Below are positions 5,238-48,885 of a stretch of DNA of 48,885 nt, one piece after another. The position numbers were made by a program, and so were the translations under genes. The stretch comes from Acinetobacter phage YC#06. Under the pieces are notes generated by a model. It made no database searches, was not told the DNA's origin, and saw only the letters and a list, made by a program, of their open reading frames with translations. Location: the sequence record ON391949.1, one strand, 5' to 3'. The stretch's first letter is position 1, and each line of letters starts with the position of its first letter.

Positions 5238-5578
5238 GATATGCAGTAAGAAGAAAACAGGATATTTCCGTTTCCACCACACCGCTAGAGGTGGTAATTC
5301 CACTGGAACAACCAGTAAAGATCTATTCGGCTAAAGAATTAGCAGCTATGCCACTTTCAGTTATGAATGCCGCAATTGAGGCTCAGGAAAGATTTTATCA
5401 ACTTGAAGAATTAACCCATATGGGGGGGGCAGGCTATAGCAGTTCGCCGTCTCATGGAGAATGGGCACAAACTAATTCAGGTGAAAGAAAAGTCTCGTAT
5501 TCGCTACAAAATCAACAACGAATTTATTCCTCCAAGAATTATTCGTCAGTTGGAAATGCGCGGATTAGTGAAGCTTGA
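5234..5578 (+). CDS. hypothetical early protein, frame disturbed by a G8 homopolymer (5422-5429)
   Basis: After the G8 tract this frame gives a Ser-rich low-complexity tail, while the +1 frame reads a plausible C-terminus ...IRYKINNEFIPPRIIRQLEMRGLVKLERGK ending at 5591. Confidence 0.4.
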   Translation: MRYAVRRKQDISVSTTPLEVVIPLEQPVKIYSAKELAAMPLSVMNAAIEAQERFYQLEELTHMGGAGYSSSPSHGEWAQTNSGERKVSYSLQNQQRIYSSKNYSSVGNARISEA

Positions 5579-16692: not shown

Positions 16693-16878
16693 CGAAAGGT
16701 ACTACAAATGTCTGAAAAGCAAATCAATATGTCGGATGCTCAATATATTCTGAGCACAAAATTAATTCTGGTGCCATTTCTTCAAATTAAGATTTCAAGA
16801 GCCATGGCAATTTATGGTTTTACTTTTGAAAGATTAAAAGCGATTGCACTCATCAATTAGAACTTAATTTTTAACCTT

Positions 16879-22282: not shown

Positions 22283-23277
22283 TGGCAAATCTTGTTTTTA
22301 AATTTAGTTGGGATCACCGGCCATTCCCGTATAACTCGGCTCAGGGAAAACGGCAATTCATGCTGCCATTCGCTTCAGGCATTCCTAATCTGGCACCAAA
22401 CTTTTCGCAGGTCCAAGGTACTGCTGCAGTCTCTCAAGGTGGTACTGGGGCAACCACTGCAGCAGAAGCGCGAAATAATCTTGGTGCTGCTGAAAAAGGT
22501 GTAAATACTGACATTACTGAAATGAAAGGTTTAGCTACTCCACTTTCAGTTGCGCAAGGTGGAACGGGTGCTTCTTCTACAGCAGGTGCTCGTTTAGTTC
22601 TTGGTTTAGGTGATATAGGGACTTCTGGATTTTTTGGAAGTAAAATTAGCGAGCTATATAACAAGGTGTCGGTTCCACAATGGATAGCTGTATTAGGTGA
22701 TAACAAGTTCACTTTCCTATCAAGTGGCGACTGGCAAGCGGGGAATACAAAGAACCCACTTAATATGCCTAGCCGATATGGTTCTTTAATGTCGTATTTG
22801 GGATCAAGCTCATATGGAACGTATTCATGGCAGATTTTTAAGGCAGTATTGGGTGGACAGCTTTCCTACCGATATGGGGCAGGAAATAATGTCTGGACTA
22901 CATGGGGACACATTAAAACCAGCTTTAATACATCAGTCGATGCAAATGGGTTCTTAAAATCGGCATCACCAGTAGTGAAGTTATTTAATGATCATATTGA
23001 ACTTAATAGTGATGCAGAAAAGCAACCAATCGAATTTAAGAAAGTTGATGTAGGCGATTATTTAATTAAGGGCTCTTTAGTCTTTGCACAGGAAGGTTGG
23101 TATATCGAAGCACCTAAAGACGCAAACGGCAACACAATCGTTGCAGTAGTGTATGACACCCTAGAAAATGGTGACATCTCAATTAAAACTTACAAGCGTA
23201 AGTTTGATTTTGAACTTGCTGCTGTTGTGGCAGATCACGAGAACCCAATGGACATTCCAGAAGGCAGTAGTGTATGA
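22282..23277 (+). CDS. tail fibre protein, N-terminal/main part (frame ends inside 121-bp duplication)
   Basis: Repeated QGGTGA(T/S) motifs typical of phage fibre N-termini; stop created in second repeat copy. Confidence 0.55.
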   Translation: MANLVFKFSWDHRPFPYNSAQGKRQFMLPFASGIPNLAPNFSQVQGTAAVSQGGTGATTAAEARNNLGAAEKGVNTDITEMKGLATPLSVAQGGTGASSTAGARLVLGLGDIGTSGFFGSKISELYNKVSVPQWIAVLGDNKFTFLSSGDWQAGNTKNPLNMPSRYGSLMSYLGSSSYGTYSWQIFKAVLGGQLSYRYGAGNNVWTTWGHIKTSFNTSVDANGFLKSASPVVKLFNDHIELNSDAEKQPIEFKKVDVGDYLIKGSLVFAQEGWYIEAPKDANGNTIVAVVYDTLENGDISIKTYKRKFDFELAAVVADHENPMDIPEGSSV

Positions 23278-23384
23278 CACCCTAGAAAATGGTGACATCT
23301 CAATTAAAACTTACAAGCGTAAGTTTGATTTTGAACTTGCTGCTGTTGCCATTGTAGCTGATCTCGAAAATCCACTTGATATTC
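23143..23384 (+). repeat. tandem duplication, period 121 bp (first 85 bp identical, last 36 bp diverged)
   Basis: gcagtagtgtatgacaccctagaaaatggtgacatctcaattaaaacttacaagcgtaagtttgattttgaacttgctgctgttg at 23143 and 23264. Confidence 0.9.
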
Positions 23385-23557
23385 CAGAAGGCCGCTGGAT
23401 TGATATCCGTCTGCATGAAGAACCTGAACCAGAGCCTGAAGAGCCGTTGAGTGAAACACCAGTGGATTTCCAGCCGACTAACTTATCTCAGGCAGTTGCT
23501 GCAGCCATGAATGGCGTGGAACCGCCAGAAATCTCAGAAACAGACGAAACACTTTAA
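23168..23557 (+). CDS. tail fibre C-terminal segment in shifted frame
   Basis: Re-reads the duplicated VVYDTLENGDISIKTYKRKFDFELAAV peptide then continues to an acidic C-terminus. Confidence 0.4.
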   Translation: MVTSQLKLTSVSLILNLLLLWQITRTQWTFQKAVVYDTLENGDISIKTYKRKFDFELAAVAIVADLENPLDIPEGRWIDIRLHEEPEPEPEEPLSETPVDFQPTNLSQAVAAAMNGVEPPEISETDETL

Positions 23558-23560
23558 TAA

Positions 23561-23583
23561 CCCGCTTAAACAGCGGGTTTTTT
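23561..23583 (+). terminator. rho-independent terminator after tail fibre
   Basis: cccgcttaaacagcggg + T6. Confidence 0.6.
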
Positions 23584-23609
23584 ATTGCCTAAATTTTGGA
23601 GAACCATAA

Positions 23610-24527
23610 ATGAGTTCAGGCGCAAAAATTCGATTATATGCTTGTGAGGAAGCAGTTTTAGGAACAACTCCTGCAAATCCAGTCTGGTACACCGTTCGCC
23701 GTGTTACTGATAGTTTGACTGAAAATGTTACTACTGAAGATAGCAGTGAAGTAGTTGATTCACGTTTTCGCCAAGGCGCTGTTGTAACGGAAGCCGAAGT
23801 AACTGGTCAACTAGAGTTTGAATTATCACTAGGTACCTTTGACTTATTCTTAAATGTTCTCGCTTTCAATAACTGGGCTGCAAATGCTTTAAGTTTTGGT
23901 GGTGGAGTACGTAAGTCTCTTACCTTGGTAAAAGTCTTTGAAGATATTGGTCAAGTCTTTATTTATCGTGGTATTCAAGTGAATACAGGTGAAATGACGA
24001 TCCAGACCACAGGCAAAATCACTGGTAACTTTGGTTTAGTAGGTAGCTCATTTACGCGACAGCAGGTTAATCCTGTTACAAATCCTATTCCAGCATCGAC
24101 TCGCCCTCTGGTGAGTATGCCAAATGTTGAAAAGCTACTTATTAATGGTCAATCAATTCAGGGTAAAGCTTGTCTGCAGACACTTACCATCAACTTTAGT
24201 AATAATCTGGAAGCGATCCGTTGTATCGGTTCTGGTAAGTACACGCCTGAGTTTTACTTAGAGAAAATGATGGATATTGGCGTAAATGCTAATTTCATGT
24301 TTTCAGCAACATCTGCTTCTTGGATTGATGCTATTAAAACCCGTGATGTATTTACATTGACCTTCGATATTACAGATACCAAAGGCAGTAAGTACTCGTT
24401 TAACTTCCCGCAACTTGAAGTTAAGGAAGCAAATCACCCTGATGGTGGTGGCGATGACATTATTACAATAGATATCAATTTTGCCCAAGTGCGTACCAGT
24501 CCAACGATTGTACGTGCTCTTGTGTAA
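23610..24527 (+). CDS. major tail (tube) protein
   Basis: 305 aa immediately upstream of the G/GT chaperone pair. Confidence 0.6.
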   Translation: MSSGAKIRLYACEEAVLGTTPANPVWYTVRRVTDSLTENVTTEDSSEVVDSRFRQGAVVTEAEVTGQLEFELSLGTFDLFLNVLAFNNWAANALSFGGGVRKSLTLVKVFEDIGQVFIYRGIQVNTGEMTIQTTGKITGNFGLVGSSFTRQQVNPVTNPIPASTRPLVSMPNVEKLLINGQSIQGKACLQTLTINFSNNLEAIRCIGSGKYTPEFYLEKMMDIGVNANFMFSATSASWIDAIKTRDVFTLTFDITDTKGSKYSFNFPQLEVKEANHPDGGGDDIITIDINFAQVRTSPTIVRALV

Positions 24528-24545
24528 TCAACTTATTCAGTAACA

Positions 24546-24573
24546 AAGCCTATGGAAACCCATGGGCTTTTTT
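24546..24573 (+). terminator. rho-independent terminator after major tail gene
   Basis: gcctatggaaacccatgggc + T6. Confidence 0.5.
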
Positions 24574-24596
24574 ATTTCTAAAAATTAGAGGTTGTT

Positions 24597-25112
24597 ATGG
24601 CTTTAAAAGTCGGAATTATTAAAAGCTCAGACGTATCAAAATGGTGTGAATACAAGGGTGCTGATGGCGATGTACAGGCTGAGTTCAAAGTCCGTGGTAT
24701 CGCTTATAAGCCTTTTCAGGTAGCTATTGAACGGGCAGGAAACCAGATCTCGTCTAAAGGCTATGATGTGATGGTCAAAGATGAAGATGCCAAGCTTTAC
24801 CACGAGCTTTTAATGGATGCATGCGCGGCCCACTTAATCGAAGACTGGAAAGGTGTGGTATTTGCCGAAATCGTAGACGGTAAAACTGTTGAGTCCGAAA
24901 AGCCATATACACCTGAGAATGCCTCAAAGCTTCTTAATCTTGGTGATATTGGTATTTCAATCTGGCTATTCATTAAAGAACAGGCCCAGAAGATTCAGGA
25001 AGACGCAGACAAGGACAAGGCTTTAATTCTGGGAAAGTCATGGAGCTCTACAAATACCAAAAAACGTATGCGTCGAAAACGCCGCACGAAATCGAGCAAA
25101 TCAAGTTCTTAG
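24597..25112 (+). CDS. tail assembly chaperone (lambda gpG analogue)
   Basis: Precedes tape measure; contains slippery heptamer near the 3' end. Confidence 0.6.
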   Translation: MALKVGIIKSSDVSKWCEYKGADGDVQAEFKVRGIAYKPFQVAIERAGNQISSKGYDVMVKDEDAKLYHELLMDACAAHLIEDWKGVVFAEIVDGKTVESEKPYTPENASKLLNLGDIGISIWLFIKEQAQKIQEDADKDKALILGKSWSSTNTKKRMRRKRRTKSSKSSS

Positions 25113-25234
25113 GATTCAGGAAGACGCAGACAAGGACAAGGCTTTAATTCTGGGAAAGTCATGGAGCTCTACAAATACCAAAAAACGTATGCGTCGAAAA
25201 CGCCGCACGAAATCGAGCAAATCAAGTTCTTAGG
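24993..25234 (+). repeat. perfect tandem duplication, period 121 bp, spanning the frameshift site and the G stop codon
   Basis: 24993-25113 identical to 25114-25234. Confidence 0.95.
25031..25037 (+). other. programmed -1 ribosomal frameshift slippery heptamer G GGA AAG (second copy at 25152-25158)
   Basis: Identical to lambda G/GT slippery sequence; correct frame relationship G(0) to T(-1). Confidence 0.6.
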
Positions 25235-25481
25235 TGGCCGTATTCCGGATCCGCCAGAATATTCGTATGCGGCCGACTCTATTCTTTCGGCATTTAGTAC
25301 TATTGCCAGATCCAGACGGTATGAGCAGGGTATCCCGTTATCTTTAGATCAGCAGGCAATCAATGTCTATGCAGAGCATAATGATTTACCCGTGGCTGCT
25401 CATATTTTTAATGACTGTATTTTTGCTTTGGATAACCTGTTTCTGGATGAGTGCCATAAGAAGTTTAAGGCAAAAAAATAA
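25161..25481 (+). CDS. tail assembly chaperone T-extension (expressed as G-T fusion by -1 frameshift)
   Basis: The -1 frame from GGGAAAG reads directly into this ORF (..GKVMELYKYQKTYASK..). Confidence 0.55.
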   Translation: MELYKYQKTYASKTPHEIEQIKFLGGRIPDPPEYSYAADSILSAFSTIARSRRYEQGIPLSLDQQAINVYAEHNDLPVAAHIFNDCIFALDNLFLDECHKKFKAKK

Positions 25482-25657
25482 AATGTTTTAAAGCTTTATT
25501 CCTTAAAGCTTAATCAAGTGCGGGATATTTTAAGAAATAAACTATATACCGCACTTTTAGCATAGTATTTCTAAAATCCTTAATAGCAAGTTTGTTAAGT
25601 TGTTGAATTTTAATATTTTAAATTTCAAGGCTAGGTGTTTAAGAATGTAATTTCTAG

Positions 25658-25686
25658 TTGACATAAATGTCATTAAGAAATATTAT
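25658..25686 (+). promoter_or_regulatory. sigma70-like promoter TTGACA-17-TATTAT with palindrome AATGTCATT in spacer
   Basis: Consensus -35, 17-bp spacer, near-consensus -10, upstream of the TA-like pair. Confidence 0.45.
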
Positions 25687-25791
25687 ATTTTCAATAGTAA
25701 ATTATATCGTACGAAATATTGTTGAATCGCACGATTACTATTAATGTTAATTTTATTTAACTGATTATCTTATTCTATTTTGGAAATTATT

Positions 25792-25941
25792 ATGAAAGCT
25801 CCAGCAATGTTGGTAACACCAACTTTTGGTGTTGATTCATCTCAAAAAATTCTTCAAGAAGCTCAGAAAAAAATTACGCCAGCTCGTAAATCACGCCTTG
25901 AGCAGCTTGCTCAAATAGCAAAAAACGCATTTAAAAATTAA
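25792..25941 (+). CDS. 49-aa small ORF, putative antitoxin partner of GNAT toxin
   Basis: ATG 25792, stop 25939-25941, 15 bp upstream of GNAT gene; below 60-aa track cutoff. Confidence 0.35.
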   Translation: MKAPAMLVTPTFGVDSSQKILQEAQKKITPARKSRLEQLAQIAKNAFKN

Positions 25942-25956
25942 TTATGAGGTTTCAAT

Positions 25957-26502
25957 TTGTCCACAGAGATTAATATTTCTGAGGTCGAGTTACGAAATTT
26001 AGATTCAGTAGAAAAGCATCTTTATCAAGATTTTTGTTGTGAGCGTGAAGAGCTCAATACGTTCTTGATTGAAGATGCTTTTGATTATCATAATTATGGT
26101 TTAACCCGAACTACTTTGGTATTTCATAACGATGTACTGATTGGCTATTTTAGCTTGTCAGCTGATAAAATTGTGCTCACTCAAACAGAAATTGATGAAT
26201 TATCTTTAAATGGGGAATTTAAAGTAACTTATTTCCCTGCAGTAAAGATTACAAAACTTGCTATTCAGAAAGCTTTTGCTGGCAAGGGGTATGGTAGGCT
26301 TATTTTGGAATTAATTGAAGGCCTAGTGTATGGTCAACATATGGCTATAAGATTTTTGACTTTAGATGCTGTAAATGAGGAAAAAGTTCTTAAGTTTTAT
26401 GAGCGAAATGGATTTAATGAAAGTCTCCATGAAGCTAGACAGCAAAGACAAAAGCAAAATAGGCAAACGATATTAATGCATAAAGATATCTTTAGTGAAT
26501 AA
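25957..26502 (+). CDS. GNAT acetyltransferase, TacT/AtaT-like toxin family
   Basis: Alignable by eye to TacT: LIGYFSLSADKIV, KLAIQKAFAGKGYGRLIL (motif A), FLTLDAVNEEKVLKFYERNGF; TTG start after GAGG. Confidence 0.65.
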   Translation: MSTEINISEVELRNLDSVEKHLYQDFCCEREELNTFLIEDAFDYHNYGLTRTTLVFHNDVLIGYFSLSADKIVLTQTEIDELSLNGEFKVTYFPAVKITKLAIQKAFAGKGYGRLILELIEGLVYGQHMAIRFLTLDAVNEEKVLKFYERNGFNESLHEARQQRQKQNRQTILMHKDIFSE

Positions 26503-26523
26503 ACCACCTTCGGGTGGTTTTCC
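26501..26523 (+). terminator. rho-independent terminator after GNAT gene
   Basis: aaccaccttcgggtggtttt. Confidence 0.55.
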
Positions 26524-26581
26524 TTTATGTGACATTTAATGATCAGTTTGCTAAATTACCCCCAAATATGAGGGTATTTTT

Positions 26582-27343
26582 ATGCTTAAGGACTATCTTG
26601 GGCCTGCCGCTGAACATAAGCACAAAGCAGAACAAGCCATTAAAGAAAAGAGATTTGATGATGCTTGGCGTCATCTTAATGAGCAAAAAATAAATTATTT
26701 TCAGCACGCAAAACAATGTAATTTTACTGAAAAGCAAACTTTGGGGCTTGATGCGGTTGTGCACATCACAATGGGCAATTTACTGAGAAGAGAAGGTAAG
26801 CATTTACAAGCTTTGTATCACATTGCTTATGTTTATAAGGTAGGTAAGCTAGAGAACCCCCAAAATGACAGTAACGATGATAGGCTAAGAATCTACTATA
26901 AAAGAGCAAAGAAAGATGGTGGATTCGAGAACTTTAAACAAGGGCTTGACCTTTTTCCCAGTTATGATTATCAGTCAGTGCAACATTTCACAAGCAGCCT
27001 TTTAAATTCTGGAGACGTAAAACAAGGAGCTATTACTTCTCCTCAAATTGAGGAAAAGCCTATTACAAAAATCCCAGAAATTAATAAGAACGCTATAAAT
27101 AATAAGTTTTTGGCTGAACGCAAGAAAAAAAAGGAAGAACATATTGGGATTCCTCCTCCATTAAAAAAGCCCGAGAAGAAGCAAGTTATTCAATATGAAA
27201 AGACGAATAGCCAAATAAGTGCAACACCTGTTAGCAGTAGTTCAAAAACTGAAGGATGTAGGAGTTCGGTTTCAGGGTTCTTTATTGCAGCGACTTGCGT
27301 GGTGATAGGTTTAATTCTGCTTGTTTGGTTGCTTTCATACTAA
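26582..27343 (+). CDS. C-terminally tail-anchored membrane protein (moron)
   Basis: Single TM helix FFIAATCVVIGLILLVWLLSY at extreme C-terminus. Confidence 0.45.
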   Translation: MLKDYLGPAAEHKHKAEQAIKEKRFDDAWRHLNEQKINYFQHAKQCNFTEKQTLGLDAVVHITMGNLLRREGKHLQALYHIAYVYKVGKLENPQNDSNDDRLRIYYKRAKKDGGFENFKQGLDLFPSYDYQSVQHFTSSLLNSGDVKQGAITSPQIEEKPITKIPEINKNAINNKFLAERKKKKEEHIGIPPPLKKPEKKQVIQYEKTNSQISATPVSSSSKTEGCRSSVSGFFIAATCVVIGLILLVWLLSY

Positions 27344-27408
27344 AATAGTAAACTAGAGAATAAACACGCTACATGTTAAATTTTACTCAAAGATAATGGT
27401 TTGGGAAT

Positions 27409-27786
27409 ATGAAAAAGATTATTTTATTAGGTTTAATATTAGGTTTAGCAGGGTGTATGTCTACTGCTAATTTTTTTGAAGTGCAAGCCACCTCTGTTCA
27501 GAATAGCGGTTATTGGACCGGGCAATATGATCGATTAGTAGGAACATTAAAGTTAAATTCCGATGGAACTGGTGTTATTTGTCAGGATGGAATGGGAACA
27601 GCGAGAGTAATGTCTGTTAAAAAATCAAATGATAAACTCTATTCACAGGATGGCAGCTTCTGGAAAGTGCAAAATGAAACACTCAACTCTATGAAATTAA
27701 ATTATGCAATTGGTGGTGGTTATGAAATGAAAAAAGATGATGATTTATCTTTGGCAACACCAGCATGTAAAGAAAAATTGAAATGA
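27409..27786 (+). CDS. lipoprotein (moron)
   Basis: MKKIILLGLILGLAGC lipobox. Confidence 0.6.
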   Translation: MKKIILLGLILGLAGCMSTANFFEVQATSVQNSGYWTGQYDRLVGTLKLNSDGTGVICQDGMGTARVMSVKKSNDKLYSQDGSFWKVQNETLNSMKLNYAIGGGYEMKKDDDLSLATPACKEKLK

Positions 27787-27834
27787 ATTCAAAATGATTT
27801 GTTAAAAATTTGACTTAGATCAGGTTTTTTATTT

Positions 27835-28410
27835 TTGATTAATGACCGCCTTTTGGCGGTTTTTTATTGCCTAGAGGAAAGTAAAATGGCACAAGAATCC
27901 CGTTTGGTCATTGTTATTGATTCGCAAAATGCTGAACGTAATGCGCGTAATCTAGGCAATGAACTTGTTAGCATTGAACGTAAAGGTGAATTTGCATCTA
28001 AGTCTATGGACAGCTTGTCTGTAGCCACCAGAGCTTTAGCTGGACACATGGCTGGTTTATTAACAGTAGGTTCAGCCATTTCAAAGATGGATACATATAC
28101 TGGATTACAAAATCGCCTTAAGTTAGTCACTAACAATCAAGTTGAACTAAATAAAGCAACGGAAGACACTTTCCGAATTGCTCAAAAAACCTATTCAGCT
28201 TGGGATTCTGTGTTACAGGTTTACCAGCGTTTTAGTGATAATGCCAAAACTTTAAACCTCACAATGGATGACACAGCACGTTTAACTGAAACAGTTTCTA
28301 AAGCTGTAGCAATTAGTGGTGCAAGCGCAGAAGCTGCTGATGCAGCTTTAGTTCAGTTCGGGCAGGCCTTGGCTAGTGGAACGTTGCGTGGACACTGCTC
28401 GACTAACTGA
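27835..28410 (+). CDS. tape measure protein N-terminal fragment (true start likely ATG 27887)
   Basis: Ends just inside second copy of 121-bp repeat; the duplicated peptide DTARLTETVSKAVAISGASAEAADAALVQFGQALASGTLRG is shared with next ORF. Confidence 0.5.
   Translation: MINDRLLAVFYCLEESKMAQESRLVIVIDSQNAERNARNLGNELVSIERKGEFASKSMDSLSVATRALAGHMAGLLTVGSAISKMDTYTGLQNRLKLVTNNQVELNKATEDTFRIAQKTYSAWDSVLQVYQRFSDNAKTLNLTMDDTARLTETVSKAVAISGASAEAADAALVQFGQALASGTLRGHCSTN
27844..27866 (+). terminator. rho-independent terminator before tape measure
   Basis: gaccgccttttggcggt + T6. Confidence 0.55.
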
Positions 28411-28511
28411 AACAGTATCAAAAGCAGTTGCGATCAGTGGTGCAAGCGCAGAAGCTGCTGATGCAGCTTTAGTACAATTTGGGCAGGCTTTGGCAAGCGG
28501 TACATTACGTG
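28270..28511 (+). repeat. tandem duplication, period 121 bp, copies differ only at synonymous positions
   Basis: Copy at 28270 and copy at 28391 encode identical 41-aa peptide with about 21 synonymous differences. Confidence 0.9.
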
Positions 28512-31500
28512 GTGAAGAACTCAACTCAGTTATGGAACAAACACCAGCTCTAGCAAAGGCTATTGCTCAAGGCATGGGGATCACCGTAGGAGAGTTGCGT
28601 TCAGTTGCGGCTGAAGGAAAAATTACTTCACAAGAAATCGTTAAAGCGCTTAAAAATGTCCAAGATGAAGTTGATGCTCTTTTTGCTAAAACTGACATTA
28701 CAATTGGTCAATCATTAACTCTACTTAATAATGAAATTACTAAATTTGTAGGAGAGGCTGGTAAAGGAAGCGGAGCAGCACAGGCTTTATCAGGATCGAT
28801 TCAGTTATTAGCAAATAATTTGAATTTAATTGCAGACAGTGCATTTGCCATAGGTATTGGCTTAATGACAAAAGCCGTTTTAACAAAAACGGTTGCTGTA
28901 CAAGCGAGCATTGCTGCGTCAACCAAACAAGTGTTTGCCACAATTGCTGAACGTAATGCAAATATTGCAGCAGCAAAAGCTGAAGTGGAATCTGCGCTTG
29001 CCGAAGCACAAAGTACACAGGTGACACTAACGAACATCAAAGCTACTCATGCTCAGATCATGGCAGAAATAGAACTCGAAAAAGTTCGTTTAAAAGCCCA
29101 AATCACTGAACAAGGTCGCACGGCTACCATCACACGAATGGCTCAGCTTGGACGATTACAAGCTCAAGTTGCGTTAGAGGTTGCTGCTGCGGAAACAGCA
29201 CAGTCTGCAGCTTCATCTAGATTATCAGCAGCCTTAACAGCGCAATCTGTTGCTACTAGCCGTTTAGCTTTAGCAAAGTCAGCGCTTATGGCGATTTTTA
29301 GCCCAATGGGTTTAGCAATTGCAGCAACAGCCGCATCTTTCTATTTACTAAGCAGCAGTTCGGATGAAGTCAAAGAGTCTCTTGCAACACAATCTGACTC
29401 GGTTAGTGATTTAACAGATAAGTACATAAAGTTAAATACTGTGCAAGCATTAACAGAGGGTGTGCGGTTACGCAAAGAGATTGAGCAGCAAAATGATGCA
29501 ATTGATGATGCTAGTGGAGCTATCAAACGTTTTGCTTATATCCAAAAGGAATTATTTAAATTATCTGGCAGTGATTATGAAGATTATCAAAATGCCATTA
29601 AGTCTATTGCTACAGGTGCAAGCGATGCAGGTGATCTCTTAAAAAAGATGATTTCATCTGGTCGTTTTAGTCAGACTCAAATTGATAAACTTATTGAGTT
29701 CTCTAGTGTAGTAGCAGAATCAAAAAATAAGATTGAGCAGGGTAATACTGCTCTAAAACTCTTAAATGCTACTTCTGGACAACATGTTGAGGTAACGGCC
29801 GAATCAATTAAGCAATTAACTATTCAAACCAACTTAACAAAAGTTGCTACTCAAAATTTCACTGACATGAAAACACAAATGCTTGATTCATTACGAGCAC
29901 AAGTGGAATTCATTCGGTTAAATGGTGGTAGCGAAGAACAAGTTAAATCGTTGAATAAGGTAATCCAGGCATATTCTTTAAATCAAATTTCAGCAACTGA
30001 TGCTGTGGACAAGTTCAACAGTACTGCCAAAGTTCCTGCTGAAAATATCAAGGGGTTACAGGATTATGCTACTAAAACGGATCAGTCTAAAATTGCGTTG
30101 AATCAGGCTAATGCTGAGCTGAAGAAACAAAACGACTTACGTAATGAGTACCTAAAACAACATCAAACTGTACTTGGTGCTCAACAAGGAGAAACAAATG
30201 AATTAAATAACCAAGTCGCTGCACAAGAAAAGTTAAATAAGTTACGAGACAACGCCAACAAAGATATTCTGAAAAATGATTTTCTTATAAAAAACACTAA
30301 GGCATTTGGTGGTGGCGAAAAGGGTCTTGATAAGGCGCGTGCGGCATCAGAGTTTTATACCGACAATAAAATTCCGATGACTAGAAGTTTAACTAGTCAG
30401 GAAGCTGCAATTTTTGAGGCTTGGTATAAGAAGCAGAAGGAAGCCAAGGACTTACAAGAAAGTATTACCGAATCTAGCAGAAAGCAAACAAAAGAGGTTG
30501 AAAAACAAACCAAAGAGTCTGCCAAACAAGCTGTTCTACTTGCTGGAAATGATGAGCGAGTGAGAAATATGCTACGAGTGTATCTGGCATTTCGAAATGC
30601 AGGTTTAGGCGATAAACAAGCTCGTGTAATGACAGCTCAAGTTGGACGAGAGACTGATTTTAGAAATGAGGCAATGTTTGGTAGCCATAAGGATGAAAAT
30701 AATGGTTATACAAATACTGGATTTTTATCATGGCAAAAAAGTCGCTCAACTAAATTAATGCAGTCTTTACAAGGGCAAGGAGTCTTGGATAAAAACGGTA
30801 AAATCCAGCAAACTCAAGATGCATTAGATGCAATGGCTAAACACGCTGTGCAAGAGGCGATGACCGATAAAAGTTATAGTAAATCTAAAGCAGCTCTTCT
30901 TAATGACGATTTAGACTATCGAAGTTTAGAGAGAATTGTTGCCAAAAATTTTGTTGGCTGGGACTATGACGGGAAAAAGCTTGGCAAAGCTAAAGCTTCA
31001 CAGCATTTAGCCAAACAAGACTCTTACTATAATCAGCTTAGTAAAATTTTAGGGGATAACCCCGAAGCAGCCTCAAAAGCAATTAGTGATCTTTCGAAAT
31101 TCGAAGATGAAGCATATAAGGCACGTGCAAAAACTCTTGAGGAAATTAAGCAGCTCCAAGCAACATATGATTCAGAAACAGTTGCTAGAAGCAAAAAACG
31201 TGAGGAGGAAATCAACAAAGCAACCATTTTAGGTCAATCAAATTTAATCCCAAAAATTAATGAGCGTTATGATGCTGAAGATAAGTTAGCTCAGAAGCAA
31301 TTTGATTTTGAAGTAAATGGTTATAAGTGGACTGAGAAGCAAAAGCTTGAGTACACATATGAAATCAATTCTTTGCGATTAGTTGCTGAAGGCAAACTCT
31401 CTGAAGATCAAAGAAAGGTTGCTTTAGATGGCCTGGAATTGCAAAAGCAGCAAGAGTTAGGATTACTAAAACTTGCTCAGGAACAGCGGTTGTTTCAGGC

Positions 31501-32902
31501 TGAGCAATTCATGCTGGGAGAAATGGAGCGTATCAAAAAACGTTATGCGCTTGAGTATGATGAAATATCAAAAATCACTGATCTTGAAGAGCGTAGAAGG
31601 AAGATGAGTGCATTTCAGGCTGATTTTATTCGTAATGGTGTGGGGAATCCAACAATTGATCAGTATGATACCTCTAGTCAGTTTCTTAAATCGACAAACT
31701 ACACCAAGCCCAAGCAAACCAATATGCAAGTATTGGATGAAGATTACGCTCAAACTTATCAAAAGTTGAAAGATAATCTTGCAGCTGTTTTGGAGTCTGA
31801 AAAAGCTAGTTATCAGGAACGATTGGAGGCGGAGCGCGTATTCAAAGAAGCAAGACAGCAAATGGATAATGAGTACCACCTGAAGGCGATTGATGCAAGA
31901 AAAGCAGATCACGACAGTCAATTGCAATTATACAGTCAGATGATTTCATCTGCTTCAAGCACATGGGGAGGTTTAACTCAAATTGTTAAGGATGCGCGTG
32001 GTGAAAATTCACGCTCTTTCAAGGCAATGTTTATAGCTCAACAATCCTTTGCTATTGCTTCTGCGATTATCTCTGCTCATTTGGCAGCTACACAAGTAGC
32101 TGCTGATGCAACGATCCCATTTTTTGGGGCAAAAATTGCGGCTTCAACCGCCATGCTTGCTATGGGATATGCAAATGCTGGTTTGATTGCTGGGCAAACA
32201 ATAGCTGGATTCTCAGATGGTGGTTACACTGGATCTGGTAGAAAATATGAACCTGCAGGTATTGTCCATAAAGGAGAGGTGGTATGGTCCCAAGAGGATA
32301 TTAAACGCTGGGGCGGAGTTGGTTTAGTTGAGAAAATGCGTAAGAGTGCAAACCCTGAAGCTTTTCTCAATAACAATGCCTCGGCAGATAGTGTCATGCG
32401 CCGTGCAATGATGAGTTCTAATGCCTTTATAGAAAGCCAAAAGCAGGCTGACATCTTTAATCAACCAGTTCAAGATACTCAGATTATCTATAAGGGTAAT
32501 AGAGACACACCTAAGTTAGCTTCTTCGGCAAATTCTGACCTGTTCCATGATGGCAAGGTCTACTTCTCATCCAATGGTATAGTTCAGGATCGCTCAAATC
32601 TGGATGATGTTCAGGACTTTACTTTAGGACGTACTTCACGCCCTCAAGCTGAGATTATGCCTTCAATTGAGCAATCCTCTCCAACTATCAATTTCAAGAT
32701 TGAAGTCGTGAATCAAGTCAGTGGTGCAACTGTTGAAGCTGAACAACTGGATGAGCAAACAGTCCGGATCATTGTTAAAGATGAACTGGATAAGCAGCTT
32801 CCAAGAACGGTACCTAAGCTTGTAAGTGATCAAATCGCAAATCCAAACTCAACCATTAGTCGGTCTTTGACTGAGAATACGACAGCAAGACGGAATCGAT
32901 AA
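28376..32902 (+). CDS. tail tape measure protein
   Basis: 1508 aa, long coiled-coil regions, C-terminal hydrophobic/Gly-rich region. Confidence 0.85.
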   Translation: MERCVDTARLTETVSKAVAISGASAEAADAALVQFGQALASGTLRGEELNSVMEQTPALAKAIAQGMGITVGELRSVAAEGKITSQEIVKALKNVQDEVDALFAKTDITIGQSLTLLNNEITKFVGEAGKGSGAAQALSGSIQLLANNLNLIADSAFAIGIGLMTKAVLTKTVAVQASIAASTKQVFATIAERNANIAAAKAEVESALAEAQSTQVTLTNIKATHAQIMAEIELEKVRLKAQITEQGRTATITRMAQLGRLQAQVALEVAAAETAQSAASSRLSAALTAQSVATSRLALAKSALMAIFSPMGLAIAATAASFYLLSSSSDEVKESLATQSDSVSDLTDKYIKLNTVQALTEGVRLRKEIEQQNDAIDDASGAIKRFAYIQKELFKLSGSDYEDYQNAIKSIATGASDAGDLLKKMISSGRFSQTQIDKLIEFSSVVAESKNKIEQGNTALKLLNATSGQHVEVTAESIKQLTIQTNLTKVATQNFTDMKTQMLDSLRAQVEFIRLNGGSEEQVKSLNKVIQAYSLNQISATDAVDKFNSTAKVPAENIKGLQDYATKTDQSKIALNQANAELKKQNDLRNEYLKQHQTVLGAQQGETNELNNQVAAQEKLNKLRDNANKDILKNDFLIKNTKAFGGGEKGLDKARAASEFYTDNKIPMTRSLTSQEAAIFEAWYKKQKEAKDLQESITESSRKQTKEVEKQTKESAKQAVLLAGNDERVRNMLRVYLAFRNAGLGDKQARVMTAQVGRETDFRNEAMFGSHKDENNGYTNTGFLSWQKSRSTKLMQSLQGQGVLDKNGKIQQTQDALDAMAKHAVQEAMTDKSYSKSKAALLNDDLDYRSLERIVAKNFVGWDYDGKKLGKAKASQHLAKQDSYYNQLSKILGDNPEAASKAISDLSKFEDEAYKARAKTLEEIKQLQATYDSETVARSKKREEEINKATILGQSNLIPKINERYDAEDKLAQKQFDFEVNGYKWTEKQKLEYTYEINSLRLVAEGKLSEDQRKVALDGLELQKQQELGLLKLAQEQRLFQAEQFMLGEMERIKKRYALEYDEISKITDLEERRRKMSAFQADFIRNGVGNPTIDQYDTSSQFLKSTNYTKPKQTNMQVLDEDYAQTYQKLKDNLAAVLESEKASYQERLEAERVFKEARQQMDNEYHLKAIDARKADHDSQLQLYSQMISSASSTWGGLTQIVKDARGENSRSFKAMFIAQQSFAIASAIISAHLAATQVAADATIPFFGAKIAASTAMLAMGYANAGLIAGQTIAGFSDGGYTGSGRKYEPAGIVHKGEVVWSQEDIKRWGGVGLVEKMRKSANPEAFLNNNASADSVMRRAMMSSNAFIESQKQADIFNQPVQDTQIIYKGNRDTPKLASSANSDLFHDGKVYFSSNGIVQDRSNLDDVQDFTLGRTSRPQAEIMPSIEQSSPTINFKIEVVNQVSGATVEAEQLDEQTVRIIVKDELDKQLPRTVPKLVSDQIANPNSTISRSLTENTTARRNR

Positions 32903-34211: not shown

Positions 34212-34240
34212 AAAAACCGACCTTAAATGGTCGGTTTTTT
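34212..34240 (+). terminator. rho-independent terminator after two-gene moron
   Basis: aaccgaccttaaatggtcggtttttt. Confidence 0.65.
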
Positions 34241-34258
34241 ATTACCTGAAGGAAAGTT

Positions 34259-34657
34259 ATGTACAAGTTAAAGCTAAATCCTCAGACCAGCGGCTATGGC
34301 GTAACACCGGGTGATGATGTGAAACGTCAGCAGATGGATGGCGGACGTGGTCGCTATTACATCGATGTAAAACGTAATAGTCATATTGTCGATGTGAACT
34401 GGAATTTAAGTAAAACCGATTTCAATAAAATGATGGCTTTCTGGCGGATCTATCAGAATAAGCCAGCTTCATTCTATGCGGATTTGGTCATAGACCAAGG
34501 AACACGTCAGCAATACCAATGCAATTTCATTCCGAACTCGTTCAAGACCAATGAAGTGAATGGCAACCTTTACCGGGTAAATGCACAGCTCGAAGTTGTT
34601 CAAAACCAGCCTAACCTTACGGCCGATATAGCTTTGATTAAGGATTGGGAGGTCTAA
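34259..34657 (+). CDS. minor tail protein (lambda gpM analogue)
   Basis: Synteny after tape measure. Confidence 0.5.
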   Translation: MYKLKLNPQTSGYGVTPGDDVKRQQMDGGRGRYYIDVKRNSHIVDVNWNLSKTDFNKMMAFWRIYQNKPASFYADLVIDQGTRQQYQCNFIPNSFKTNEVNGNLYRVNAQLEVVQNQPNLTADIALIKDWEV

Positions 34658-38977: not shown

Positions 38978-39002
38978 GAGCACCCAATTCGGGTGCTTTT
39001 TT
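38978..39002 (+). terminator. rho-independent terminator after gpJ analogue
   Basis: gagcacccaattcgggtgcttttt. Confidence 0.6.
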
Positions 39003-39028
39003 ATTGCCTAAATTTTCTGGAGATATAA

Positions 39029-39418
39029 ATGGAACCAGTTTCCACAAGCGGTTTAACAGCAATTTTAAAATTTTATGGAGCGGCAATCATGGTGACTTTA
39101 GCGGTCGCTTTAGTTGCAGCAGTAGTATTAATGACACGTATGCCACGCTCACCACAAGAGTGGGCAGTGGGCTTGATCTGTACGGTTGTATCAAGTTTGG
39201 CTGGCGGCTCATTCATTATTGTGAAGTGGGGGCTTCATGAATGGGTTACTGATGTATGGGGGATGATTGCTCTAGGTGGGTTCTTCTTTGTTTGTGGATT
39301 ACCCGGTTGGGCTTTGGTCCGTTGGATTTTTAACTTCATAGATAAACAGGAAGGTAAAACGATTGTGGAAGTGATCAAAGAGTTTAAGAAAGCCAGAAAA
39401 GACATTGAAAACAGTTAA
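39029..39418 (+). CDS. holin (three predicted TM segments)
   Basis: Three hydrophobic helices; immediately upstream of endolysin. Confidence 0.55.
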   Translation: MEPVSTSGLTAILKFYGAAIMVTLAVALVAAVVLMTRMPRSPQEWAVGLICTVVSSLAGGSFIIVKWGLHEWVTDVWGMIALGGFFFVCGLPGWALVRWIFNFIDKQEGKTIVEVIKEFKKARKDIENS

Positions 39419-39419
39419 T

Positions 39420-39440
39420 GCCGCCTTCGGGCGGTTTTTT
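39420..39440 (+). terminator. rho-independent terminator after holin
   Basis: gccgccttcgggcggtttttt. Confidence 0.6.
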
Positions 39441-39460
39441 ATTACCTAAGGGAAACCGAA

Positions 39461-40006
39461 ATGAACATTGAAAAATATCTTGAAGAGTTGATCAAGCGTG
39501 AAGGTGGATACGTAAATAACCCGGCAGACCGTGGTGGTGCAACTAAATATGGCATCACTGAAGCAGTTGCTCGAGCAAATGGATTCAAAGGTAATATGCG
39601 AGATTTACCTCTGGATGTGGCCAAAGCAATTTATCGCAAAAACTATTGGACAGCCCCACGTTTTGATCAGGTGAATATCATTTCTTCTGCTGTAGCTGAA
39701 GAGCTTCTAGACACTGGTGTGAATTGCGGTACCGGATTTGCAAAACCTCTTTTACAACGTGCTTTGAATCTCCTAAATAACCAAGGTAAAGCAGGTTGGC
39801 CAGATTTAACAGTTGACGGAATTTATGGTCCAGCAACTCTTAATGCACTCAAAACTTATCTGGCCAAACGCGGGAAAGAAGGCGAGAAAGTCTTGGTACG
39901 AGTACTTAATATCATGCAAGGTCAGCGTTACATTGAAATCTGTGAGCGCAATCCAAGCCAAGAACAATTTTTCTATGGCTGGATTGCTAATCGAGTATCA
40001 ATGTGA
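39461..40006 (+). CDS. endolysin, GH108 lysozyme with C-terminal peptidoglycan-binding domain
   Basis: EGGYVNNPADRGGATKYGIT signature of GH108. Confidence 0.8.
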   Translation: MNIEKYLEELIKREGGYVNNPADRGGATKYGITEAVARANGFKGNMRDLPLDVAKAIYRKNYWTAPRFDQVNIISSAVAEELLDTGVNCGTGFAKPLLQRALNLLNNQGKAGWPDLTVDGIYGPATLNALKTYLAKRGKEGEKVLVRVLNIMQGQRYIEICERNPSQEQFFYGWIANRVSM

Positions 40007-45401: not shown

Positions 45402-45473
45402 CTTTAAGCCTCCAACAACTTGTTACGTTCGATGAAGCCTCTCGAGCACACGCGCCACACGTACACCCGTTAG

Positions 45474-46683
45474 GGAAACGCTGATCAATGAGCCTGTCGT
45501 CCGCATAACGGACGAGGCAGGTTGCAATTTTCAGATTGACGTAGGAATTTGACGACATGCGAGGTGAGTTTCGCTCGTATTCGGGCCTCACTTCCCGCGT
45601 TTTTCACACACATGACGGATTGCTCCCATGAGTCGACAACAGCTGATTTTTCGCGATCACCAGGTTCGCCAGCGCGAACAGACTGAACAGCTGTGCCGTG
45701 TTCCTGGCTAGACCCTTGTAGCGCACCTTGCGATGACGAAACAGGTTCTTCACGACATGAAACGGATGCTCGACCCGGGCGCGGATCTGCGCCTTGGTTC
45801 GCTCGACCGCGATCACGAGGTCCTTCAGCGGACCTTCCTGCATCGCCCTGATCTTTCCGCGCTTGAGCGCCACGTGCCACTTCACCGTCTTGCCCTTCAT
45901 CTCCTCGCGCTTGTCCACGCCGGTGTAGCCCGCATCGCCAAACGCTTCCTGCTCATGACCGTGCAGCAGGGCGTGGGCCTGCGATACGTCCGGCTCGTTG
46001 GCCGCCGTGGTGACCACGCTATGCACCAGACCCGAGTCGGCGTCGACGCCGACATGGGCCTTCATGCCGAAATACCAGTCGTTGCCCTTCTTCGTCTGAT
46101 GCATCTCCGGGTCACGGCTCTTCCCGGCGTTCTTCGTGGACGGCGCAGCCTCGAAGATCGTCGCATCCACCAGCGTGCCTTCCTTCATCATCAGCCCGCG
46201 CTCGCACAACTCGATGCCGATCTCGTCGAACAGCTTTCGCGTCAGTGCGTGCTCGACCAGCAGGCGCCGGAATTTCAACAGCGTGGTGGCGTCCGGCACG
46301 TTCTCGCGCGCCAGGTCGATGCCCGCGAAGGCGCGCATCGCGATGCTGTCGTAGAGCGCATCTTCAAGCCCTTCGTCCGACAACCCGTACCACTGCTGCA
46401 GCAAGTAGATCCGCAGCATCCGTTCCAGGCCAATCGGCGGCCGGCCACGCTCGCCCTTCGGGTAATACGGCCCGATCACCGACAGCAGCCGCGACCAAGG
46501 GACGACCTTCTCCATCTCGGCCAGAAAGCGTTGACGCTTGGTCACCCGCTTCTTGCCCGCACTTTCCGCTTCCGCAAAACCGATCTGCCGCTGCATCGTC
46601 GTGGGTCCGTTCCGTGAGCTTCTTTCTACAACGCCCTTGGCCTCGTCAGCGATGACCGCCAAGCCGAATTGATCAGTGTTTCC
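45474..46683 (-). mobile_element. IS5-family insertion sequence, 1210 bp, 16-bp imperfect IRs GGAAACRCTGATCAAT, TSD TTAG (45470-45473 and 46684-46687)
   Basis: 65% GC island in a 40% GC background; terminal inverted repeats and flanking 4-bp direct repeat matching IS5 YTAR target. Confidence 0.8.
45604..46662 (-). CDS. IS5-family DDE transposase
   Basis: Alignable along full length to E. coli IS5 transposase (…LRIYLLQQWYGLSDEGLEDALYD…DPEMHQTKKGNDWYFGMKAHVGVD…RARVEHPF…). Confidence 0.85.
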   Translation of the reverse strand: MAVIADEAKGVVERSSRNGPTTMQRQIGFAEAESAGKKRVTKRQRFLAEMEKVVPWSRLLSVIGPYYPKGERGRPPIGLERMLRIYLLQQWYGLSDEGLEDALYDSIAMRAFAGIDLARENVPDATTLLKFRRLLVEHALTRKLFDEIGIELCERGLMMKEGTLVDATIFEAAPSTKNAGKSRDPEMHQTKKGNDWYFGMKAHVGVDADSGLVHSVVTTAANEPDVSQAHALLHGHEQEAFGDAGYTGVDKREEMKGKTVKWHVALKRGKIRAMQEGPLKDLVIAVERTKAQIRARVEHPFHVVKNLFRHRKVRYKGLARNTAQLFSLFALANLVIAKNQLLSTHGSNPSCV

Positions 46684-47349
46684 TTAGCGAGAAGGACCAC
46701 TCTGTACTCCGGTCTCACTATTTTTTCTAAAAAGATAATGTTTGAAGCAATTAAATACATTCCAAAAATTTCGACCTTGGACTACATTTTCGTACTTGAT
46801 CCAAGCGCTAAAAGTAACTTTTTGGTACAACCTTGAGCTGAAATCTGGTTCAAGGTTGAACGTTAAAGTAGAGTTGTTCTCTAGCCTATAGCATTCTTTT
46901 TGACCTGTGACGTGGTTTTCAGGTAATTTTTCAATTACAGCTCCAACCGTCTTGGATTTTATCCATAGATTCCGTCCTCCCACCTTCATTTTTGAAAATT
47001 CTTCACGCAATTTCCCAGCTTCAGATACAACTAAAGTCTTATCTGCTTTATCCTTGGTTGCGTTCAGGATTTCCTGACGGATAGAGCCAGCTCGCACCTC
47101 AAATTCAGCCTGACTCAACTTCTGATTTAGCTTGTTCTGCGTGTCTGTCTCAAGCCTCTTCACAGATTGCCGGATATTTTCAGCAGTCACATTGAGTGAG
47201 CTGATATCCACTTTGGTTCTAAGCCCTTCAGTCAAGCTTCTCACACCAGCGTCGAGCGAGTTGGCTCGTTGTTTAAAGGTCGATTCTACTGTTGAAATCT
47301 GCAACTCAACAAGCGCGTAGGGCACGTCTACAAGAAAGCATTTATGCAA
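46684..47349 (-). pseudogene. 5'-truncated ORF (beta-rich C-terminal domain, possibly fibre-like); its first 15 codons are antisense T7 RNAP sequence
   Basis: The ORF's own stop codon TAA overlaps the IS target duplication; homology break at about 47302. Confidence 0.3.
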
Positions 47350-47846
47350 GTTGTCGAGGCTGACATGCTCTCTAAGGGTCTACTCGGTGGCGAGGCGTGG
47401 TCTTCGTGGCATAAGGAAGACTCTATTCATGTAGGAGTACGCTGATATCTGCATCGAGATGCTCATTGAGTCAACCGGAATGGTTAGCTTACACCGCCAA
47501 AATGCTGGCGTAGTAGGTCAAGACTCTGAGACTATCGAACTCGGATATCAATACGCTGAGGCTATCGCAACCCGTGCAGGTGCGCTGGCTGGCATCTCTC
47601 CGATGTTCCAACCTTGCGTAGTTCCTCCTAAGCCGTGGACTGGGATATCTGGTGGTGGCTATTGGGCTAACGGTCGTCGTCCTCTGGCGCTGGTGCGTAC
47701 TCACAGTAAGAAAGCACTGATGCGCTACGAAGACGTTTACATGGATATCGTGTACAAAGCGATTAACATTGCGCAAAACACCGCATGGAAAATCAACAAG
47801 AAAGTCCTAGCGGTCGCCAACGTAATCACCAAGTGGAAGCATTGTC
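47303..47846 (+). pseudogene. bacteriophage T7 gene 1 (RNA polymerase) internal fragment, about residues 95-277, carrying GATATC hexamers at 47444, 47544, 47644, 47744
   Basis: Near-exact DNA and protein identity to T7 RNAP except at the hexamers (APE to GYQ, ITG to ISG, PEV to DIV, and a frameshifting change at the first). Confidence 0.75.
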
Positions 47847-48458
47847 TTCACCGAGATTGGCCTGAAGACCTTAGGGTCCAAGGATGCTGGTGTCCGCGCA
47901 ATCGCTCAAGACCTCGTGCGCTCTCCAACAGGGATGCAATCAGGGTCTAGCGGTAAGTTCGGTGCGACCGCTTCGGATATCCACGAGCGGCTCCACGCTA
48001 CAGACCAACGGATGTATAACCAGCTGTATGACGCTGTTGACCGTGCCATGAAGGACCCTGAGTTCTCCATCGGTGAGCAGAAGATGTCCCGTAAGGCTAT
48101 CCGTCAGGAAGTGTACAAGCGTGCTGCCTTGGCGATTGAGCGCCCAGAGCTACAGGCTGACTTGACCAAAGGTGAACGTGAGGTAATGGACTTGCTGAAA
48201 GAGCACTTCGATACCAAGCGTGAACTGATGGAACAGCCCGGTATCTTTGGCAACGCCAACGCCGTAAGCATCTTCCCCGGTAGTCGTCATAAAGGAACCT
48301 ACGTACCTAACGTGTACGATAGGGGCGCTAAGGAGCTGATGACTCAGAAGCTGGGTGGACCCGAAGGACTCTCATACGGGTCATCTGGTAGAACAGGCTG
48401 TACTTCAGCGCGTGCTTACCGTCTGCATCACGTGCCGTCTGGTAGTCCTGTCGGATAA
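47847..48458 (+). pseudogene. T7-like gp16 (internal virion protein D) internal fragment fused in frame to the RNAP fragment
   Basis: FTEIGLKTLGS...LVRSPTGMQSG.SGKFGATASDIHERLH...RAALAIERPELQ...HFDTKRELME...SIFP.SRHKGTYVP.VYDR matches T7-group gp16. Confidence 0.5.
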
Positions 48459-48870
48459 CCTCGTCACGGATAACCAAGCGGTGACTTGCCAGTACAGGCT
48501 CAAGGGTATCGCAGATACGGGCCTCTTTCATACCACGAGCACGAATCTCTTCGAGTTGCGCTGGGTGATGCTTCAGGAGCACAGGCTGGAACACGTTACC
48601 GAACATACCGTCACCGAAGTTACTCTCGAAGACCACAGTCTGCACCTGCCACTGTTTGGCTTTCTTAGCGAGGAACTCAAGGGACTTCTCTTCGTAACCA
48701 CGGGTACCTCCAGCGTCCATCAAGTAGATGTAACCGTTGAGGGTGTACAGCACGCACCAACCAGTTTCATCCTTACCGCGACCACTGGGGTCAATGACCA
48801 GAATCTTACCCTGATACGCACCAGTGTTACTGGAGGCTGTATGGAAGGAGTAAATCTCGTCACCCTTCAT
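48328..48870 (-). pseudogene. T7-like gp19 (terminase large subunit) C-terminal region fragment, antisense to the gp16 fragment
   Basis: [17 protein letters not shown] ... [10 protein letters not shown] ... GMKEARI resembles T7 gp19. Confidence 0.5.
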
Positions 48871-48885
48871 GCCAACGTTAGGAAG

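Follow-up and report, generated by a model that had tools for sequence, protein, structure and literature searches.

A 121-bp tandem duplication in the tail assembly chaperone cassette of an Acinetobacter phage sequence is very probably not a biological feature

The G/GT tail assembly chaperone cassette of phage lambda uses the slippery heptamer GGGAAAG, read as G_GGA_AAG. Production of a tail chaperone by -1 frameshifting is conserved in the long-tailed dsDNA phages (Xu et al. 2004; reviewed in PMC5009743). G and GT, made at a ratio of roughly 30:1, act as chaperones for the tape-measure protein and bring in the tube protein (PMC5009743). We analyzed the corresponding cassette in the window, by which we mean the whole 48,885-nt stretch of DNA under study. 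Positions 1-45413 of the window are collinear with positions 1-45048 of the Acinetobacter siphophage YMC/09/02/B1251 (NC_019541 / JX403940, Vieuvirus; hereafter B1251) at ~99% identity.

The G/GT cassette and its relatives

The cassette and the gene that precedes it consist of the following features.

23610-24527, plus strand: tail tube protein gene, directly 5' of G (Pfam PF18906 Phage_tube_2, E=3.7e-35)
24597-25112, plus strand: gene G, short form of the tail assembly chaperone, 171 aa, intact (open reading frame, relatives and PHROG 313)
25031-25037, plus strand: slippery heptamer G_GGA_AAG, predicted to be a functional -1 frameshift site (sequence; 40/40 relatives)
25161-25481, plus strand: T-domain ORF, 106 aa (PHROG 1189 and 313)

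The first GGGAAAG of the window reads G_GGA_AAG in the ORF 24597-25112 and thus lies in the X_XXY_YYZ phase near the 3' end of G, whose TAG stop codon occupies positions 25110-25112. When one copy of the 121-nt repeat described below is removed from the window, a -1 slip at this heptamer gives a computed fusion of 254 aa, residues 1-252 of which align with positions 13-253 of the 258 positions of the PHROG 313 "tail assembly chaperone" profile (E=2e-65). The T part by itself matches PHROG 1189 and 313 in a profile search. Our local copy of Pfam returned no match for the chaperone products, and PF27119 (Phage_YdaY) is recorded on a gene G of equal length in natural genomes. The predicted junction peptide of a -1 shift at G_GGA_AAG is ...ALILGKVMELYK. 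No stimulatory RNA structure was predicted 3' of the slippery site (MFE -10.7 kcal/mol, z = +0.6).

We compared the cassette with 40 related loci, namely those with a complete gene. G measures 171 aa in 40/40 of them, each locus contains exactly one in-phase heptamer (40/40), and the -1 product GT is 253-257 aa long in every one of the 40. Natural A. baumannii genomes encode an identical 106-aa T ORF, which shares 73 nt with G and lies in the -1 frame. With the tape-measure gene starting at ~27887, G/GT is located between the tube and tape-measure genes. A moron block of 2.4 kb (acetyltransferase, lipoprotein) parts T from the tape-measure gene, and does so likewise in B1251. The sequence-only reading had proposed that removal of one copy restores a canonical lambda-like G/GT arrangement. 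This is borne out by the 254-aa product, which matches PHROG 313 over its full length, and by an architecture equal to that of 40/40 relatives.

In such a cassette, translation of G (171 aa) would normally stop at the TAG. A minority of ribosomes would slip by -1 on G_GGA_AAG and continue into T, producing a fusion of ~254 aa, and this GT fusion would then join the tape-measure protein to the tail tube. Judged by its sequence, the locus without the second copy is an ordinary lambda-like G/GT tail assembly chaperone cassette from a B1251-like Acinetobacter siphophage (Vieuvirus), and the conserved, predicted -1 frameshift at G_GGA_AAG with its 254-aa GT chaperone is ordinary biology in this group of phages. 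The RefSeq record of B1251 (NC_019541) lists G (24472-24987), and holds no T ORF or joined GT product in 24988-25545; it could be improved by adding the T/GT product. Several B1251 relatives annotate a tail assembly chaperone at the G/T position.

The 121-bp repeat and its effect on GT

The repeat covers the 3' end of G and the DNA that follows it.

24993-25113, plus strand: copy 1, the last 40 codons of G with the first slippery site and the stop, plus 1 nt
25114-25234, plus strand: copy 2, the extra copy, absent from every relative
25152-25158, plus strand: second, duplicated heptamer, 3' of the G stop
25037-25147, plus strand: -1 frame from the first slippery site, truncated GT product of 183 aa (ORF 25040-25147)

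A perfect 121-bp tandem duplication, with 24993-25113 repeated at 25114-25234, had been reported from the letters of the window. We confirmed it with Tandem Repeats Finder (24992-25234, period 121, 2.0 copies, 100% matches, score 486), with a repeat search (24992-25112 and 25113-25233, 100% identical) and by direct reading, which together with a three-way base-by-base comparison agrees with a 121-nt repeat. One G is common to the boundaries, so the phase is ambiguous by 1 nt, the coordinates given by the sequence-only reading hold just as well, and the repeated stretch measures 243 nt. The unit had also been said to contain the slippery heptamer and the stop codon of G, and both are indeed present in each copy, GGGAAAG at 25031-25037 and 25152-25158 and TAG at 25110-25112 and 25231-25233. 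Copy 1 matches not only copy 2 but also at least 45 IMG/VR prophage loci at 100% identity. A chance origin of the repeat is ruled out by the identity of 121/121 nt and by the finding that 121 is the sole offset with a signal.

Gene G itself is untouched by the duplication, and the damage falls on GT. From the first slippery site the -1 frame reads VMELYKYQ...IKFLG and then, in the out-of-phase copy 2, FRKTQTRTRL, before it meets a TAA at 25145-25147. It thus terminates 36 codons after the slip, and the resulting 183-aa product ends ...IKFLGFRKTQTRTRL at this stop, in agreement with the sequence-only reading, which had this frame end in copy 2. Ribosomes translating G cannot reach the second heptamer, as they terminate before it, at the G stop. 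With the -1 frame closed in copy 2 and the second heptamer past the G stop, no GT would be made by frameshifting. T begins 48 nt 3' of G in the window versus the 73-nt overlap in natural genomes, a displacement of 121 nt. Because 121 = 3x40+1, this displacement brings T into the frame of G behind a single TAG (25110-25112). The zero frame reads ...KSSKSSS, stop, DSGRRRQGQGFNSGKVMELYKYQ...KAKK, stop, with one in-frame stop and a linker of 16 codons before T. The T extension had been called orphaned, which holds insofar as it is separated from G, but it lies in the G frame behind just one TAG. In the window as written, a G-T fusion would be possible solely by stop-codon readthrough.

This arrangement raises the question of whether a real duplication has recoded the cassette, with T placed in the G frame and a G-T fusion (171 + 1 + 16 + 106 aa) produced by readthrough of the TAG. 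There is a single in-frame stop between G and T, and GT is needed at only about 1:30 relative to G (PMC5009743), a level that leaky termination could approach. If true, this would be a natural swap of -1 frameshifting for stop-codon readthrough in a tail chaperone. However, the G-TAG-T arrangement is used by no relative, and the fusion would keep the basic C-terminal tail of G followed by a 16-aa out-of-frame linker of putative compatibility. The fibre and tape-measure genes discussed below are broken by unrescued +1 shifts, and all arguments against a genuine duplication apply here as well. We consider recoding extremely improbable.

We next turn to the relatives, a comparison that had been named beforehand as a check of the duplication. 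Our set comprised 88 related loci, made up of 34 Acinetobacter phage records, 50 IMG/VR prophage contigs and 4 NCBI genome loci, and the duplication is absent from all 88. Alignment to each of the 34 matching phage records breaks into two pieces, and the span covered in the record falls short of that in the query by 121 nt. A 57-nt stretch from the start of the window's unit allele occurs exactly once per contig in 50/50 IMG/VR Acinetobacter contigs. The 4 NCBI genome loci encode the exact T protein overlapping G and are single-copy. BLAST searches with the repeat plus its flanks gave halves that overlap by 121 nt in the subject, with 51/51 loci single-copy. One of the relatives (L012) is 100% identical on both flanks and equals the window minus one copy. 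A 28-mer and a 22-mer spanning the G/GT junction are absent from viral, genome and metagenome collections. A lineage-specific natural variant is thus ruled out, all relatives being single-copy, including the one that is identical on both sides.

Sister events with the same period

An autocorrelation of the whole window (all offsets from 20 to 1000, at least 75% identity in 60 nt) gave offset 121 alone, at three sites (~23143, 24993 and 28270). The 48.9 kb thus contain three near-tandem repeats, all with period 121 and all within 5.4 kb. Besides the G/GT repeat these are:

23143-23384, plus strand: sister event 1, in the tail-fibre gene (PHROG 1836, PF25670), period 121
28270-28511, plus strand: sister event 2, in the tape-measure gene, period 121, copies 84% identical

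All three duplications are absent from B1251, and their junctions were found in none of the viral, genome and metagenome collections. All three events damage products of tail assembly: the ORFs of fibre and tape measure undergo a +1 shift, and the GT fusion is cut short by a stop.

In the fibre event, copy 1 is of B1251 type throughout, and copy 2 consists of 85 identical nt followed by an L045-type allele. The fibre ORF is truncated at 23277, with its remainder in another frame, and the truncated protein (331 aa) is not on record among 153 billion gene positions. At 23349 the sequence switches abruptly from B1251 type to L045 type with a 6-nt stutter (GCTGCTGTTG|CCATTGTAGC), which is absent from B1251, LPAB65 and L045; a 53-mer across this switch is absent from viral_contigs and genome_contigs. 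The stutter region, 23339-23360, reads TTG|CCATTG, with the protein ...AAV-AI-VADLEN. The L045-type allele carries a 6-nt deletion ~90 nt 3' of the switch, which would fit an equal-length block replacement by coordinates.

The tape-measure event splits its gene into 27835-28410 and 28376-32902. Here copy 1 is an L045-type allele, 100% identical to 13 IMG/VR loci, and copy 2 is the B1251-type allele, again at 100%. The two copies differ at 19/121 positions, almost all of them third codon positions. Ten IMG/VR loci follow the window without a mismatch over 27858-28392, up to where copy 1 ends, and fall to ~80% identity beyond it; B1251 matches at 100% from 28391, where copy 2 begins. Around G/GT, 23350-25113 is 100% L045-type and 25164-27885 shows no mismatch to B1251, so that an allele switch falls inside the duplicated G/GT unit. 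Each 121-nt jump-back is thus found within 121 nt of a parental allele switch. The sequence-only reading had likened the G/GT repeat to events of identical period in the fibre and tape-measure genes. The autocorrelation returns 121 at all three sites, in agreement with this, but the fibre and tape-measure copies represent different natural alleles and are not simple self-duplications. Self-duplication followed by random drift would not yield different parental alleles in the sister copies.

Several other sources of near-tandem repeats were rejected. Random in-silico mutation of one sister copy is ruled out, since at each variant position the divergent copy carries the base of a natural allele. 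A TR/VR pair of a diversity-generating retroelement (DGR), brought to mind by repeats of ~120 nt in tail genes, does not fit the differences at 28270, which involve all bases, fall on third codon positions, match natural alleles and show no adenine bias; at G/GT the copies are identical, and the B1251 annotation contains no reverse transcriptase. A target-site duplication by a mobile element is ruled out at G/GT, there being nothing between the copies.

Could slippage during replication, or else illegitimate recombination, have produced the repeat in vivo and so have inactivated GT, the carrier being a defective phage variant or a prophage in decay? The copies at G/GT are perfect, as in a recent event, the backbone is natural mosaic DNA, and cryptic prophages are known to accumulate disabling lesions. 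A genuine duplication is expected to have a length and breakpoints of its own, and we instead found 121 nt at three sites. That independent events would three times give exactly 121 nt within 5.4 kb, and never any other length, is not credible. The sister copies moreover correspond to different parental alleles that switch at or next to the junction without flanking identity, neither 88 related loci nor three collections contain the duplication, and the same window carries demonstrably artificial edits. An in vivo duplication is therefore highly unlikely. If it were real, the in-frame G-TAG-T order would represent a natural experiment on the setting of the G:GT ratio.

A composite window and the origin of the extra copy

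The backbone of the window appears natural. Its differences from B1251 are clustered and biased towards third codon positions (24/24 and 12/12 in some clusters, for example), as is typical of natural allelic mosaicism, and we regard the backbone as genuine. The start of the window coincides with exactly base 1 of the B1251 GenBank record, which suggests that the window was derived from or ordered against this record and not sequenced independently. Indels of 1-2 bases relative to B1251 are found at 5422, 8146, 16798-16799, 27886 and 40128; these five may reflect either homopolymer errors of the 2012 reference or frameshifts of the window. The indel at 27886, located where the tape-measure gene begins, is in agreement with L045-type loci. 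The backbone also contains repeated intergenic modules at 27846-27888, 34221-34263 and 39421-39463 and at 23578-23612 and 38997-39031. They consist of a GC hairpin and a T-run (terminator-like), then TTATTGCCTA...GGAAA and ATG, precede the tape-measure gene, the minor-tail block, the lysis region and the tube gene, and are probably conserved terminator and ribosome-binding-site cassettes.

The 3' end of the window is of a different nature.

45414-48885, no strand: foreign patchwork in place of the last 316 nt of the B1251-like genome
Piece of the patchwork: a 52-nt GC-rich stub
Piece of the patchwork: ISBmu23, 99.9% identical to the copy in Burkholderia phage KS5, with TTAG at both flanks
Piece of the patchwork: 608 nt of a pneumococcal-phage PblB gene
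Piece of the patchwork: 545 nt of T7 RNA polymerase (T7 gene 1)
Piece of the patchwork: 525 nt of a Klebsiella phage transglycosylase-like gene, 90.7%
Piece of the patchwork, minus strand: 515 nt of a Klebsiella phage terminase, 96.9%

In the T7 piece, the hexamer GATATC (an EcoRV site) has been written over native T7 bases at 47444, 47544, 47644 and 47744, with a spacing of exactly 100 nt. These four hexamers account for every difference between the piece and T7, and the first of them is a 7-nt insertion that frameshifts the T7 RNA polymerase gene. The periodic GATATC is unmistakable as a planted motif on this spacing, since no natural or assembler process would make such edits. Natural transposition of ISBmu23 into the phage is unlikely, its two flanks being unrelated sequences. 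Together, the foreign 3' patchwork and the periodic GATATC indicate that the window is the outcome of in-silico editing or compositing.

The edits bear directly on the extra G/GT copy. The suspicion that its duplicated state is not genuine, implied by the sequence-only reading, is strongly backed by its absence from 88 loci, by a length common to three gene-breaking events, and by the other edits made in silico in the same window. We thus conclude that the 121-nt duplication is very probably not a real biological feature, and that a non-biological origin, as either an in-silico edit or a mis-join, is very likely.

A mis-join would come about if contigs or graph segments from two related Vieuvirus prophages had been joined along B1251 with a fixed overlap of k = 121 left untrimmed. 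Retained assembly overlaps are a documented source of artificial duplication (PMC13577107). The length is constant at the three sites and odd, as are de Bruijn k values, and all three sites lie at most 121 nt from a switch between B1251 and L045 type, where an assembly graph would branch. A. baumannii genomes carry two such prophages, for example GCA_040796485.1, and a start at base 1 of B1251 is what a reference-ordered scaffold would show. Graph overlaps are exact, however, and copy identity is 100% at G/GT but 84% at 28270, where the copies differ at 19/121 positions in the tape-measure gene, and at 23143 it extends over 85/121 nt, with the fibre copies divergent over the last 36 nt. The repeats also begin after the first variant position and not at the last shared k-mer. 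Finally, GATATC hexamers at 100-nt intervals in a T7 fragment are not something an assembler would produce, nor would it join pieces of Burkholderia, Streptococcus, E. coli and Klebsiella phages without shared sequence. A pure k-mer-overlap artefact thus fits the G/GT site and not its non-identical sister events; we retain it as a rival and consider it unlikely. The two related Vieuvirus-like prophages of GCA_040796485.1 (L055 and L056) reside in one 4.15-Mb A. baumannii chromosome and have identical T ORFs and different moron and tape-measure regions, and such pairs show how easily short-read assemblies could yield chimeras.

The explanation we favor is that the duplication probably stems from deliberate editing or compositing on a computer. 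The extra copy would have been introduced during compilation of the sequence on a computer, together with the fibre and tape-measure duplications and by one procedure. We infer this route from what can be read directly in the window and its relatives, that is from the repeat, its absence in relatives, the common period, the disruption of genes and the composite make-up of the window. Apart from the extra copy, the local G/GT sequence is pristine natural DNA (L045-type / B1251-type). Some observations count against editing: the G/GT copies are identical, as those of a young genuine duplication would be, the backbone variation is natural and biased towards third codon positions, and the single-G microhomology at the junction is compatible with illegitimate recombination. 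In addition, no software or procedure that we can name gives 121-nt jump-backs next to allele switches.

The practical value of these findings lies in quality control, as it would be a mistake to take the window for a natural phage genome. We recommend treating the periodic GATATC, the 3' patchwork and all three 121-nt events as construction artefacts or planted edits. A naive annotation would call G/GT, the tail fibre and the tape measure pseudogenes, and would wrongly conclude that the phage is defective.

Compared with known systems, the duplication shares with untrimmed-overlap assembly duplications a fixed odd length, perfect copies at G/GT and a location at allele switches, but differs from them in its non-identical sister copies and in the company of edits that no assembler makes. 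The window shares gene order and G protein length with B1251 and A. baumannii prophages. Each of the three 121-nt units is single-copy in B1251 and relatives, in contrast to the window, which in addition carries L045-type allele patches relative to B1251 and contains 3.5 kb of unrelated sequence instead of the last 316 nt of that record. As in the G/GT cassette of phage lambda, the gene is located directly 3' of the tail tube gene and 5' of the tape-measure gene, an in-phase heptamer lies near the 3' end of G, and, once one copy is removed, a -1 ORF of ~100 codons overlaps the end of G. Unlike lambda, the window cassette has a 2.4-kb moron block before the tape measure and lacks a predicted downstream stimulatory RNA structure, and in the window as written a 121-nt repeat takes the place of the overlap, so that the -1 frame ends early. 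The overlapping -1 T extension, the defining trait of such a cassette, is thus missing from the window as written and is found as soon as one copy is removed.
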